The position numbers were made by a program, and so were the translations under genes. The notes beneath the pieces are model-generated. The model ran no database searches. It worked only from the letters and a program-made list of their open reading frames with translations, and was not told where the DNA came from. Source: Salinispira sp. (GTDB lineage Bacteria > Spirochaetota > Spirochaetia > DSM-27196 > Salinispiraceae). Taken from it: a DNA stretch of 64,000 bases. The DNA lies in the NCBI GenBank assembly GCA_965602015.1, contig OZ271918.1, forward strand, positions 1,184,001 through 1,248,000, given 5' to 3'. Within the stretch, counting starts at the first letter, position 1, and the number at the start of each line of letters is the position of its first letter. Positions 29,345-51,524 of the stretch are shown one piece after another.

Positions 29345-29361
29345 CCGGTCTTGTAAAAAAT

Positions 29362-29434
29362 GGTGGCGTAGCTCAGTTGGTAGAGCAAACGGCTCATATC
29401 CGTTCGGTCAGGGGTTCAAGTCCCTTCGCCACTA
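29362..29434 (+). tRNA. tRNA-Met (CAT), probably elongator; CCA not encoded
   Basis: Acceptor stem GGTGGCG/CGCCACT, D arm GCTCAGTTGGTAGAGC, anticodon loop CTCATAT, T loop GGTTCAAGTCC. Confidence 0.95.
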
Positions 29435-29438
29435 TCGG

Positions 29439-29477
29439 CCCGGTGTAATCCTTGGAGATGACGCCGGGTTTTTTTTT
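29439..29477 (+). terminator. Rho-independent terminator after tRNA
   Basis: CCCGGTGT..ACGCCGGG stem followed by a T9 tract. Confidence 0.8.
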
Positions 29478-29560
29478 ATTAAGTGATGGTATGAAAGCGG
29501 TGCCTCCCCCGAGATCCTGCCAGTCAGGGTCTATATTAAATACCGGAGGAGGACAACCAA

Positions 29561-30613
29561 ATGAGTAGTATTATTATATCCCTCGACAGCCATAAACGGT
29601 ATACCGTGGCTGCAATTGAGGACGAAAAAGGAAGGAAATCCTCACAGCGCATAGAACATTCTCACGGGTGTATTCGTGATTTTCTCCAACAATTTGAGCC
29701 GGGACAGGAAGTCGCACTTGAAACAATCGGAAGTTGGTACTGGATTGTGGATGAGATTGAGGAGGCCGGCATGAACCCCTTGCTGGTACATGCCGGTAAG
29801 TCAAAATTGATGATGGCCATGTTTAACAAAACTGACAAACTCGATGCTGAAGGTCTCAATAAACTTCAAAAAGCAGGCACACTGCCTACTGTGTGGATTC
29901 CACCAGGAGAATTGCGTGATAAACGAGAACTCTATCGAACCCGGATGCAGTTCGTTCAGGAGTTGATACGTGAAAAGAACCAAATTCATGCCGGGTTCGA
30001 GAAATATGGGTTTCGATTCAATGATGTGAGCGATCTGTTCGGAAAAGCAGGTACAGAAGCCATGAAGAAGGTAATGCCAAAACTCCCCGAGCATACCCGC
30101 ACCATGATGAAACTCAAGCTCGATAATCTCGCGTTTATTAAGCAATCTATCACCGACTGCGAACAACGAATGCATGAAGCGTTTGATGAAAATGCTGAAA
30201 TGAAGTTGGTGAAATCCATTCCCGGGATCGGATTTATTCTCAGCGCAGTCATTGTGCATGAAATTGGAGACATACATCGCTTTAAGACCGCTGAACATTT
30301 TGCATCATACTGTGGTACAACGCCGCGCGTTCACTCGAGCGGAGGTAAAACTCATTATGGTCGAACATCGAAAGCATGTAATCGATACTTGAAGTGGGCA
30401 CTTACTGAAGCAGCTAATGTAACCTGTCTTAATCAAAGAAATTGGGCGAACCGACATACGGTAAAACTCTACAAGAGAGTTCGTACTAAACGTAATCATA
30501 AGGTTGCAATAATCGCCGTGGCACGGCACTTAGCAGAAGCAATATTTTGGATATTGCAGAAAGAACAGCATTACAAAGATCCTGCATTAGCGGGTTTGTC
30601 CAGACAGGGGTAA
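29561..30613 (+). CDS. IS110-family DEDD recombinase/transposase
   Basis: SLDSHK, ALETIG and KTDKLDA (DEDD); SIPGIG and PRVHSSGGK in the C-terminal domain; SD GGAGGAGG. Confidence 0.97.
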   Translation: MSSIIISLDSHKRYTVAAIEDEKGRKSSQRIEHSHGCIRDFLQQFEPGQEVALETIGSWYWIVDEIEEAGMNPLLVHAGKSKLMMAMFNKTDKLDAEGLNKLQKAGTLPTVWIPPGELRDKRELYRTRMQFVQELIREKNQIHAGFEKYGFRFNDVSDLFGKAGTEAMKKVMPKLPEHTRTMMKLKLDNLAFIKQSITDCEQRMHEAFDENAEMKLVKSIPGIGFILSAVIVHEIGDIHRFKTAEHFASYCGTTPRVHSSGGKTHYGRTSKACNRYLKWALTEAANVTCLNQRNWANRHTVKLYKRVRTKRNHKVAIIAVARHLAEAIFWILQKEQHYKDPALAGLSRQG

Positions 30614-30766
30614 GCGCGTTTTTGGGGCTACAGCGCGAATACGAGGCTGTGCAAAGTGATTGCGACACCCCTGGAAGGACATTTTCATGCCACGTGGATG
30701 GCGGAGATATGACTCGGACAAAACCGATTTGCAGAATTTTTGTAATAGAACATTGAAAACTCTTGC
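30614..30766 (+). ncRNA. Predicted bridge/seek RNA of IS1111-type element copy 1 (boundaries approximate)
   Basis: Segments TTTTGGGG, AAAGTG, TTTCATGCCA and AGATATG match the target and donor arms; located in the 3' non-coding end, as known for the IS1111 group. Confidence 0.8.
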
Positions 30767-30872
30767 GGGGAGGCACCGCTTTCAGATATGCCCCCAAAAC
30801 AGCTGATCGAATCAACATAACTCTTTTGCCAGTAGTCTTCTATGACACGATTCCCGCTCATAGGAGATTGCC

Positions 30873-32006
30873 ATGGCGTTTCACCCCCGTTTCTGTCCGT
30901 ACTCGGACTGCTCTCAGCATCATCGCGACAGAGAATCAAGCCGGTGCTGGTTTGTCCGAAACGGTCACTATCACTGCCGCCGCCTCGGTTCTTCCCAGCG
31001 CTATCGCTGTAAGCATTGCCGTCGATACTTCTGCGAAAGCGCGTTTCACCTCGATTATCGCGCACATCATCGCCTCGATTACCGGCGCATCTTTTCTTCG
31101 ATCAACTCGGCTTCTGGCATCCGCGACATTGCCCGGGAGTTTTATGTCACCGACAAGGTCATTCTCAATCGATTGAGTCGCCTGTCCCGTCAGGCGATCG
31201 CTGCCATGGCCCAGTTATTGAGCGATCATACAATCGATGAGGATATTGCCGTTGATGGGTTTGAAAGCTTTGTGTACAGCCAATACTGGCCGAACAACTT
31301 CACCCTCGCGGTGGGTTCCGACAGCCAGGTTGTCTATGCCTGCGACTATGCGCAGATGCGGCGCAAAGGGCGGATGACCCCCGCACAAAAGCGCCGGCGC
31401 GATGAGCTCAATCGCCGGTATCCTATTGCAGGGGGACAAATTGCGCGATCTTTCCGTGATGTGATAAACACCATTCTTCCCAGGTGGAGGGCTTATTCAT
31501 CGAAGAAGCCATGCTATCTCTTGAGCGATGAAAAACTCGAATACCGCCGTGAGCTGTTCGCTCACCGGGACTGGGCGGCGTTGGAAAATGCAGGGCGGGT
31601 GATCCATCACCGAACCTCATCGAGGGTGGTCAGGACCACTGAGAACCCCCTGTTTCCGGTGAATTACCTGGATCGGGAGATACGAAAGGATCAATCCTGT
31701 CATGTCCGCCAGAGTGTCCAGTGGTCAAAATCGGTGAACAACAGCATGGAGCGGATGATGATTTACATCGCCTATCATAACCTGCTCAAGCCGTATCGGA
31801 TAAACGGACGAAACGATATCAGCCATGGTGAGGTTGCGGGGTTTGACCGAAAGCGGGTACTCACGTTGGCAAAAAGGATGTTTACACAGCGGGCCTTCGT
31901 TCATCATCTGGTGCTGGACATCAGCCAATGGAAGACCTGGCACCGGATCTGGAAGACACCGGTGAGTGCGCTGAAGATCGATCTTCCCGATTATGCGGTG
32001 GCCTGA
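30873..32006 (+). CDS. IS1-like transposase (zinc ribbon + HTH + DDE-like domain, single ORF)
   Basis: CPYSDC..RYRCKHCRRYF zinc ribbon, SGIRDIAREF HTH, IAVDGFESFV and LLSDEK acidic motifs; enclosed by inverted repeats. Family assignment is inferred. Confidence 0.8.
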   Translation: MAFHPRFCPYSDCSQHHRDRESSRCWFVRNGHYHCRRLGSSQRYRCKHCRRYFCESAFHLDYRAHHRLDYRRIFSSINSASGIRDIAREFYVTDKVILNRLSRLSRQAIAAMAQLLSDHTIDEDIAVDGFESFVYSQYWPNNFTLAVGSDSQVVYACDYAQMRRKGRMTPAQKRRRDELNRRYPIAGGQIARSFRDVINTILPRWRAYSSKKPCYLLSDEKLEYRRELFAHRDWAALENAGRVIHHRTSSRVVRTTENPLFPVNYLDREIRKDQSCHVRQSVQWSKSVNNSMERMMIYIAYHNLLKPYRINGRNDISHGEVAGFDRKRVLTLAKRMFTQRAFVHHLVLDISQWKTWHRIWKTPVSALKIDLPDYAVA

Positions 32007-32043
32007 GGAGGGGAAAATCAGCTGTTTTGGGGGCACTAAACTC

Positions 32044-48759: not shown

Positions 48760-49002
48760 AGATGTTTACCGGTGCGAATTGTATACCAGTATATGTTAAA
48801 TTTATTCAATTACCCAATACTTACCGTACAGTATAACCCGAAAGCAATAAAATCCAAATAAAAACGCGTGGGTGAAAATATAGAAATTCCCAGAAGTTTT
48901 TGCAAATTTTTCGTAAGTGCCCCCAAAACAGCTGATCGAATCAACATAACTCTTTTGCCAGTAGTCTTCTATGACACGATTACCAGTTCATAGGAGATTA
49001 GC

Positions 49003-50136
49003 ATGGCATTAATCCCTCGTTTCTGTCCGTACTCGGACTGTTCTCAGCATCATCGCGACAGAGAATCAAGCCGGTGCTGGTTTGTCCGAAACGGCCACTA
49101 TCACTGCCGCCGCCTCGGTTCTTCCCAGCGCTATCGCTGCAAGCATTGCCGTCGATACTTCTGCGAAAGCGCGTTCCACCTCGATTATCGCGCACATCAT
49201 CGCCTCGATTACCGGCGCATCTTCTCTTCAATCAACTCGGCCTCCGGCATTCGCGATATTGCCCGGGAGTTTTATGTCACCGACAAGGTCATTCTCAATC
49301 GGCTGAGCCGATTGTCCCGTCAGGCAATCGCTGCCATGGCCCAGTTATCGAATGATCATACAATCGATGAGGATATTGCCGTTGATGGGTTTGAAAGCTT
49401 TGTGTATAGCCAATACTGGCCGAGCAACTTCACTCTCGCGGTGGGTTCCGACAGCCAGGTTGTCTATGCGTGCGACTATGCGCAGATGCGGCGTAAAGGG
49501 CGGATGACCCCCGCACAAAAGCGCCGGCGCGATGAGCTCAATCGCCAGTATCCTATTGCAGGGGGACAAATTGCGCGATCTTTCCGGGATGTGATGAATA
49601 CCATTCTTCCCCGATGGAAGGCTTATTCATCGAAGAGGCCATGCTATCTCTTGAGCGATGAAAAACTCGAATACCGCCGTGAGCTGTGCGCTCATCGGGA
49701 CTGGGCGGCGTTGGAAAATGCAGGGCGGGTTATCCATCACCGAACCTCATCAAGGGTGGTCAGGACCACTGAGAACCCCCTGTTTCCGGTGAATTACCTG
49801 GACCGGGAGATACGAAAGGATCAATCCTGTCATGTCCGCCAGAGCGTGCAGTGGTCAAAATCGGTGAACAACAGCATGGAGCGGATGATGATTTACATCG
49901 CCTATCATAACCTGCTCAAGCCGTATCGGATAAACGGACGAAACGATATCAGCCATGGTGAGGTTGCGGGGTTTGACCGAAGGCGGGTACTCACGTTGAC
50001 AAAAAGCATGTTTACACAGCGGGCCTTCGTTCATCATCTGGTGCTGGACATCAGCCAATGGAAGACCTGGCACCGGATCTGGAAGACGCCGGTGAGTGCG
50101 CTAAAGATCGACCTACCCGATTATGCGGTGGCCTGA
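49003..50136 (+). CDS. IS1-like transposase, copy 2
   Basis: 377 aa; about 13 substitutions relative to copy 1 by eye. Confidence 0.8.
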   Translation: MALIPRFCPYSDCSQHHRDRESSRCWFVRNGHYHCRRLGSSQRYRCKHCRRYFCESAFHLDYRAHHRLDYRRIFSSINSASGIRDIAREFYVTDKVILNRLSRLSRQAIAAMAQLSNDHTIDEDIAVDGFESFVYSQYWPSNFTLAVGSDSQVVYACDYAQMRRKGRMTPAQKRRRDELNRQYPIAGGQIARSFRDVMNTILPRWKAYSSKRPCYLLSDEKLEYRRELCAHRDWAALENAGRVIHHRTSSRVVRTTENPLFPVNYLDREIRKDQSCHVRQSVQWSKSVNNSMERMMIYIAYHNLLKPYRINGRNDISHGEVAGFDRRRVLTLTKSMFTQRAFVHHLVLDISQWKTWHRIWKTPVSALKIDLPDYAVA

Positions 50137-50186
50137 GGGGCGGAAATCAGCTGTTTTGGGGGCATATCTGAAAGCGGTGCCCCCCC

Positions 50187-50339
50187 GCAAGAGTTTTCAT
50201 TGTTCTATTACAAAAATTCTGCAAATCGGTTTTGTCCGAGTCATATCTCCGCCATCCACGTGGCATGAAAATGTCCTTCCAGGGGTGTCGCAATCACTTT
50301 GCACAGCCTCGTATTCGCGCTGTAGCCCCAAAAACGCGC
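50187..50339 (-). ncRNA. Predicted bridge/seek RNA, copy 2
   Basis: All four guide-like segments are identical to copy 1. Confidence 0.8.
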
Positions 50340-51392
50340 TTACCCCTGTCTGGACAAACCCGCTAATGCAGGATCTTTGTAATGCTGTTCTTTCTGCAAT
50401 ATCCAAAATATTGCTTCTGCTAAGTGCCGTGCCACGGCGATTATTGCAACCTTATGATTACGTTTAGTACGAACTCTCTTGTAGAGTTTTACCGTATGTC
50501 GGTTCGCCCAATTTCTTTGATTAAGACAGGTTACATTAGCTGCTTCAGTAAGTGCCCACTTCAAGTATCGATTACATGCTTTCGATGTTCGACCATAATG
50601 AGTTTTACCTCCGCTCGAGTGAACGCGCGGCGTTGTACCACAGTATGATGCAAAATGTTCAGCGGTCTTAAAGCGATGTATGTCTCCAATTTCATGCACA
50701 ATGACTGCGCTGAGAATAAATCCGATCCCGGGAATGGATTTCACCAACTTCATTTCAGCATTTTCATCAAACGCTTCATGCATTCGTTGTTCGCAGTCGG
50801 TGATAGATTGCTTAATAAACGCGAGATTATCGAGCTTGAGTTTCATCATGGTGCGGGTATGCTCGGGGAGTTTTGGCATTACCTTCTTCATGGCTTCTGT
50901 ACCTGCTTTTCCGAACAGATCGCTCACATCATTGAATCGAAACCCATATTTCTCGAACCCGGCATGAATTTGGTTCTTTTCACGTATCAACTCCTGAACG
51001 AACTGCATCCGGGTTCGATAGAGTTCTCGTTTATCACGCAATTCTCCTGGTGGAATCCACACAGTAGGCAGTGTGCCTGCTTTTTGAAGTTTATTGAGAC
51101 CTTCAGCATCGAGTTTGTCAGTTTTGTTAAACATGGCCATCATCAATTTTGACTTACCGGCATGTACCAGCAAGGGGTTCATGCCGGCCTCCTCAATCTC
51201 ATCCACAATCCAGTACCAACTTCCGATCGTTTCAAGTGCGACTTCCTGTCCCGGCTCAAATTGTTGGAGAAAATCACGAATACACCCGTGAGAATGTTCT
51301 ATGCGCTGTGAGGATTTCCTTCCATTTTCGTCCTCAATTGCAGCCACGGTATACCGTTTATGGCTGTCGAGGGATATAATAGTATTACTCAT
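50340..51392 (-). CDS. IS110-family DEDD recombinase/transposase, copy 2
   Basis: 350 aa; 3 N-terminal substitutions relative to copy 1 by eye. Confidence 0.97.
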   Translation of the reverse strand: MSNTIISLDSHKRYTVAAIEDENGRKSSQRIEHSHGCIRDFLQQFEPGQEVALETIGSWYWIVDEIEEAGMNPLLVHAGKSKLMMAMFNKTDKLDAEGLNKLQKAGTLPTVWIPPGELRDKRELYRTRMQFVQELIREKNQIHAGFEKYGFRFNDVSDLFGKAGTEAMKKVMPKLPEHTRTMMKLKLDNLAFIKQSITDCEQRMHEAFDENAEMKLVKSIPGIGFILSAVIVHEIGDIHRFKTAEHFASYCGTTPRVHSSGGKTHYGRTSKACNRYLKWALTEAANVTCLNQRNWANRHTVKLYKRVRTKRNHKVAIIAVARHLAEAIFWILQKEQHYKDPALAGLSRQG

Positions 51393-51524
51393 TTGGTTGT
51401 CCTCCTCCGGTATTTAATATAGACCCTGACTGGCAGGATCTCGGGGGAGGCACCGCTTTCATACCATCACTTTCTGATTTCTTCCCCGTTGGCGGCGCTC
51501 TTCAACCCGTGATAGCATCGCTTT

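Follow-up and report, generated by a model that had tools for sequence, protein, structure and literature searches.

An IS110-family element of IS1111-like build within the terminal repeats of an IS1-like family and its MITEs in Salinispira

IS4321 and IS5075 reportedly insert in the 38-bp terminal repeats of Tn21-family transposons (work attributed to Partridge and Hall, 2003). The element described here lies in a window of 64,000 nucleotides, the whole stretch of Salinispira sp. DNA that was analysed. Like this pair it is a DEDD element with subterminal repeats that occupies one position inside the terminal repeat of another mobile element. It differs from them in its target, which is a set of IS1-like repeats with MITEs and solo ends instead of Tn21, and in having 12 nt between its subterminal repeats. 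ISEc11, ISKpn4, ISPst6 and ISPa11 are IS1111-type elements with a seekRNA, ISPa11 being one that targets REPs (PMC11187229). In the IS1111 seekRNAs covered there the top-strand complement comes ahead of the bottom-strand match, an order also found in the 3' non-coding region of the window element. Natural reprogramming among relatives and multicopy intergenic targets are further shared features, whereas the window element lacks the 7+3 extensions of these elements, has GTTP----SG in place of their GL-P motif, and has another target. The IS621 bridge recombinase, as described in PMC11208160 and PMC13626964, likewise has a 2-bp core, and loops of its RNA carry the guides for target and donor. 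In IS621, however, the core is CT and not TG; the window element also has its RNA at the right end, a reversed guide order and long subterminal repeats. Finally, ISEc21 (IS110 group) targets an IS3-family transposase gene and so is, like our element, an IS110-family member programmed against another IS, but it inserts in coding sequence and has its non-coding region 5' (PMC11187229).

Insertion of an IS110-family element at the terminal repeat of another element is therefore a known habit; what appears new is the pairing with IS1-like ends and MITEs. This pairing was not found in a search of the literature by title or abstract start.

Insertion at a fixed position of a multicopy repeat

The original prediction held that cutting out 29486-30790 leaves letters identical to those of host copy 2 at its intact left end (48914 onward). 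This is the case, and the equivalent cuts 29484-30788 and 29485-30789 regenerate the same intact end (Table 1). Because three cut positions are equivalent, the core is the 2-bp TG and nothing longer, in agreement with the statement that TG alone is found at both junctions. That the insertion parts the outermost bases from the rest of the repeat also held up: about 5 bp separate TG from the host tip, which is further out (see below), so the terminal repeat is truly split. An inverted copy of the element (50163-51467) splits the right end of host copy 2, the very copy that had been taken as intact for this comparison. In the element the subterminal inverted repeats are perfect over 18 bp, and the non-coding stretch is 177 bp downstream of the gene vs 75 bp upstream. 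Right of the insertion, host copy 1 occupies 30789-32040. It is of note that this copy directly follows a tRNA-Met gene and a terminator-like hairpin (29361-29478), and that only 3 bp separate its right end from an nrdR-like gene's stop codon.

Table 1. Coordinates, in the window, of the element, its predicted guides and the interrupted host copies
Feature	Position	Strand	Remarks
IS110-family element of IS1111-like build, copy 1	29486..30790	+	1305 bp including one TG core at right end
TG core, left junction	29484..29485	+	Repeated at 30789-30790; three equivalent cut positions
Left subterminal inverted repeat, 18 bp	29492..29509	+	Begins 6 bp inside left end; from sequence
Right subterminal inverted repeat, 18 bp	30767..30784	+	From sequence
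DEDD recombinase, 350 aa	29561..30613	+	PF01548 + PF02371; NF033542; D9, E54, D92, D95, G--P----SG (S260)
Predicted bridge/seek RNA	30599..30721	+	Target-binding stem-loop, then donor-binding region; consensus fold
Predicted right-target guide	30619..30629	+	Complement of target right of core; mismatched to each host end at a single internal base
Predicted left-target guide, AAAG + TG core	30653..30658	+	Sequence match
Predicted left-donor guide	30705..30712	+	Matches the element's own right end across core
Host left terminal repeat, outer 7 bp, severed from remainder	29479..29485	+	Tip position inferred
Host copy 1 left terminal repeat, inner 17 bp	30791..30807	+	Junction comparison
Host IS1-like transposase, 377 aa, intact	30873..32006	+	No Pfam family; NF033558 E=1.5e-8, score under cut-off
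Host copy 1 right terminal repeat, intact	32017..32040	-	Inner 19 bp + outer 5 bp
Host IS copy 2	48913..50164	+	Left end intact, right repeat split
Second IS110-family copy, within right terminal repeat of host copy 2	50163..51467	-	Outer bases 51468-51474

Genome-wide there are nine complete copies of the element (98.9-100% identity) and one broken copy, at nine sites. Had most copies been found at unrelated sequences, the idea of a site-specific parasite would have had to be given up; the genome-wide check showed instead that all nine sites read AG-TG-CCCC-N-AA, a specific target entered in one orientation with a short common core and no further duplication. Three sites are ends of autonomous host IS copies, three are ends of MITEs of about 143 bp and one is a solo end; the two others are the end of a sister-family MITE of about 110 bp and a 12-bp partial match. 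Since autonomous host-IS ends make up only three of the nine, the target is the repeat motif and not the IS as such. The picture of a parasite with a multicopy landing pad thus stands as regards site-specific insertion in a terminal repeat, but not as regards a pad formed by the IS alone: the pad is common to 12 IS copies, 29 MITEs, three mini-elements, 35 solo ends and the sister family.

We counted 123 ends in the main repeat family (24 IS, 58 MITE, 6 mini-element and 35 solo), of which 116 lie outside ORFs of at least 150 codons. Occupancy is 3/24 for IS ends, 3/58 for MITE ends, 0/6 for mini-elements and 1/35 for solo ends. Every occupied end has AG before the core (7/74 AG ends hit vs 0/49 others, p=0.041). 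The string AGTGCCCCNAA occurs at 82 sites in the genome, 72 of them counted within the main repeat family; by eye, the other 10 comprise one diverged main-family end, eight sister-family sites and one partial match. Each of the three hit hosts has its own variant of the element, and none is the nearest copy of another, which fits independent insertions. No duplicated composite of host plus element was seen among these three cases, a weak test, and a 10-mer common to the regions upstream of two hit hosts led to no paralogous empty site.

Two sites have more complex structures. At G000:C1:3399415-3402534 two identical copies of the element lie in tandem, and the 255-bp spacer between them repeats the DNA that lies left of the first copy, the joint being at the right tip of the element and at a chromosomal TG. 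At G000:C1:1706985-1709280 a copy is interrupted, with loss of about 320 bp, by a 1310-bp element that has an IS3-like two-ORF layout (family judged by eye) and seven identical copies. This site, which holds three nested elements, was considered as a possible off-target; that was rejected because the insertion is at the end of the sister-family MITE of about 110 bp, the outermost element.

Family assignment and predicted guide RNA

The recombinase contains the Pfam domains PF01548 (DEDD RuvC-like) and PF02371 (Transposase_20) and scores 226.8 bits against the NCBIfam IS110 model NF033542, the cut-off of which is 140. Among 32 sequences D9, E54, D92, D95, G252, P255 and G261 are invariant and S260 nearly so; the best plasmid matches are only about 31% identical. 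The non-coding region holds predicted guides that by sequence match both target strands, another IS110-family criterion. On such sequence features the element is a member of the IS110 family. Is it also an IS1111 element, as the original prediction had termed it? Two traits of that group are present, namely subterminal inverted repeats and a long downstream non-coding region with the top-strand guide first. Across 125 loci these inverted repeats are 3-18 bp long, mostly 9-12, and the distance between them is 12 nt in the window element and in 122 of the 125. PMC11187229 gives the IS1111 group terminal extensions of 7 (or 6) + 3 bp and a GL-P----S(t)G motif. Both are absent here, the C-terminal motif being GTTP----SG, so that we call the element IS1111-like in build and not a strict IS1111 member.

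Comparison of the 3' non-coding region with the target gave a match at 10 of 11 bases; at least 10 were reached in none of 200 shuffles. For comparison with relatives we took 160 loci (the best 80 of 314 plus the best 80 of 587). Guides and both flanks could be parsed at 120 of 161 loci, the window included, giving 77 distinct guide pairs. The left guide agrees with the left flank at 278 of 308 positions (shuffled mean 114.5, maximum 144) and the right guide with the right flank at 373 of 539 (shuffled mean 177.0, maximum 216), although relatives, like the MITE pairs used below, are not independent samples, so these shuffle statistics overstate the case. Agreement of the right guide falls with distance from the core, at 75, 71, 67, 55, 47, 41 and 17 of the 77. 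A full guide match is absent from all genomic sites.

In a consensus fold built from 41 of 75 distinct regions both target guides share a single internal loop within a covarying stem, and 14 of 21 pairs have compensatory changes (41 sequences). Folding the 3' region as a single sequence gave no significant result (z -1.24), and a search of Rfam returned tRNA as the sole match. On the donor side, the match of the right-donor guide to the left end, judged by eye, is limited to about four bases; a 10-nt version read by eye was rejected because it is partly inside a stem. The predicted promoter at the circle junction is weak in the window element (8/12) and scores 9-10 for most relatives. Scores of at least 10 were obtained for 83 of 134 circle junctions vs 3 of 126 genomic-flank controls.

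We consider it highly probable that the element entered after base 7 of an IS1-like repeat of about 24 bp, likely by RNA-guided recombination at the TG core. Two guides in the 3' non-coding region, matching the repeat on both sides of the cut, would steer the insertion. By analogy with the family, the element would form a circle, its RNA would pair with the target and donor ends, and the recombinase would exchange strands at TG. As the guide would read only some 11-13 bp, any AG-TG-CCCC-N-AA end would be a target, whether of an IS, a MITE, a solo repeat or the sister family; and as these ends are almost all intergenic, the host family would have seeded the genome with cheap landing sites. The window element leaves the known mechanism unchanged. 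What it appears to add is a natural bridge recombinase with a readable guide, a TG core, nine mapped sites and visible mismatch tolerance, useful for mining guide rules and tools and for asking if other ISs spread less because of IS110 elements.

Relatives of the element have other targets. Five of the 160 loci (L086, L094, L196, L099 and L102) occupy two fixed positions, 60 bp from one another, immediately downstream of genes for IS1634-family transposases. Four of the 160 (L122, L135, L222 and L228) have a tRNA T-arm-like left flank and guides to match. The large clade to which the element belongs thus has members that target IS1-like ends, IS1634 ends and tRNA genes, and targeting of other mobile elements recurs within it. 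The host protein adjoins none of the 160 related loci (best 80 of 314 plus best 80 of 587). The junction pattern was found in one of 99 genomes, the present one (G000), many of the others being draft assemblies, which drop repeats. In genome G001 the end motif is present 21 times, with no match to the recombinase in an assembly that is 83% complete; G014 gave no match to the empty-site pattern, and a single-protein scan of genome contigs gave 69 candidates, none of which was confirmed.

The host terminus, the effect of insertion and other readings

Whether the insertion damages the host depends on the position of the host terminus. The inner 19 bp of the host repeat are almost invariant and are regenerated right of the insertion, so one might argue that the functional end is TG itself, that the element lands at the border and that the duplicated TG keeps the end whole and the host mobile. 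The outer bases are less regular: in the 12 IS copies the outer three have a divergence of 55% vs 3.4% inside, do not track interior divergence and look uninherited, and assignment of the tip accordingly rests mainly on the MITEs. A perfect 9-bp duplication, moreover, is seen in 0 of 44 elements, and most of the 12 IS copies have no duplication at all. Against this reading, 15 near-identical MITE pairs hold exactly five extra bases: positions 1 to 5 outside TG are identical in 28, 30, 29, 28 and 24 of 30 cases, and position 6 in 9 of 30. Direct repeats peak at the 5/5 register, where 8 of 9 bases match in 6 of 44 elements (shuffled maximum 2), and a related family in G002 has perfect direct repeats in the same register in two of eight copies. 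AG precedes TG at 24 of 24 IS ends, whereas TA, which the insertion leaves before TG, is found at 0 of 116 unoccupied ends. MITE-pair identity and direct-repeat register together indicate a repeat of about 24 bp with insertion after base 7; they largely reject the zero-duplication model, which we retain as a rival and judge unlikely. If the tip is placed in this way, the hit end is likely unusable for transposition, since the tip and the inner repeat are now 1.3 kb apart and since no free end has TA in place of AG.

Does the element then act as a dedicated one-to-one parasite that switches an autonomous IS off by insertion and on again by precise excision? The occupancy of IS ends (3/24 vs 4/99 for the others) might suggest so, and AAAG of the left guide matches a common IS outer end, but IS ends are not significantly enriched (Fisher p=0.13; p=0.68 among AG-preceded ends) and six of the nine sites are not IS ends. 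For IS621, post-excision junctions were detected at a low level (PMC13626964). For IS4321 and IS5075, by contrast, a table in PMC5001619 lists 5248 and 403 circle junctions, respectively, and 0 deletion junctions, and for ISEc11, which also forms circles, the rejoined target was undetected (PMC11187229). Contigs from four sequencing runs of one sample, possibly the source, contained neither an excision joint nor a circle joint, a result that speaks for neither side because contigs drop rare forms. Restoration of the end by precise excision is on this analysis doubtful, and the switch as a whole distinctly unlikely. That the host gene is intact and nine of 12 host copies are unhit suggests a family that is burdened, not silenced. 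The nesting could also be a side effect of a shared preference for AT-rich intergenic DNA, or an artefact of repeat assembly, both elements being multicopy and no listed contig piece covering the whole stretch. The insertion is, however, base-exact, with the same core in nine different flanks and several distinct element variants, and the guides predict the site; with nine concordant sites we give this explanation a negligible chance.

The variable outer bases raise one more question, that of an arms race in which the IS1-like family rewrites its outermost end bases and thereby evades an RNA-guided element limiting its mobility. The bases concerned adjoin, and partly underlie, the zone read by the left guide, and the contrast in divergence given above, like the lack of any genomic site fully matching the guide, would accord with such escape. 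On the other side, related hosts in G002 and G014 likewise have variable outer bases, and no close relative of the IS110-family element was found in either genome. We regard an arms race as a long shot. The related IS1-like family of G014 (L045-L054) has ends that reach about 15 bp past the conserved core.

The host family and other repeats of the genome

The host family consists of 12 intact IS copies, 29 MITEs (133-145 bp), three mini-elements (42-47 bp) and 35 solo ends; MITE interiors are mostly unalignable, and a 19-bp motif is near-invariant throughout. Its ORF is intact in all 12 copies, with 74 variable codons that are synonymous only and 27 that change an amino acid. IS1-family elements have terminal inverted repeats with an 8-9-bp target duplication, and IS1595 transposases a DDN triad. 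The host protein resembles IS1/IS1595 transposases, with a below-cut-off score only: it reaches 34.8 bits against the IS1 model NF033558 (cut-off 100), the match spanning residues 40-154. The nearest annotated Atlas cluster is of IS1/IS1595 type (score 0.93). Shared with these families are an N-terminal zinc finger, predicted from C8, C13, C46 and C49 (invariant in 90 sequences), a helix-turn-helix, matched in up to 11 of 90 sequences, and the terminal repeats of about 24 bp, to which imperfect traces of 8-9-bp direct repeats may be added. The host differs from them in falling below the IS1 cut-off, in having no Pfam DDE match and apparently in its third acidic residue: D128 and D219 are invariant in the 90 sequences and N264 and D267 nearly so, and no conserved Glu is found there. 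The protein had no match in plasmids, and in the PDB zinc-finger chains alone were returned, at E 0.3 or worse. Relatives that bear a taxon name belong to Spirochaetota. With no Pfam name and oddly variable tips, the host family may be more interesting than its parasite.

Other repeats were noted in G000. The sister terminal-repeat family has 16 sites, some with ends paired about 110 bp apart, for example on C1 near 196382 and 2745868 (numbered with the IS110 copies taken out in silico). At C1:2757339-2760636 there is a distant relative of the host gene, in broken form. A separate family of repeats of about 70 bp with inverted ends has eight copies in three clusters, at G000:C1 near 1924774-1938029, 3344516-3348225 and 3790054-3795658.
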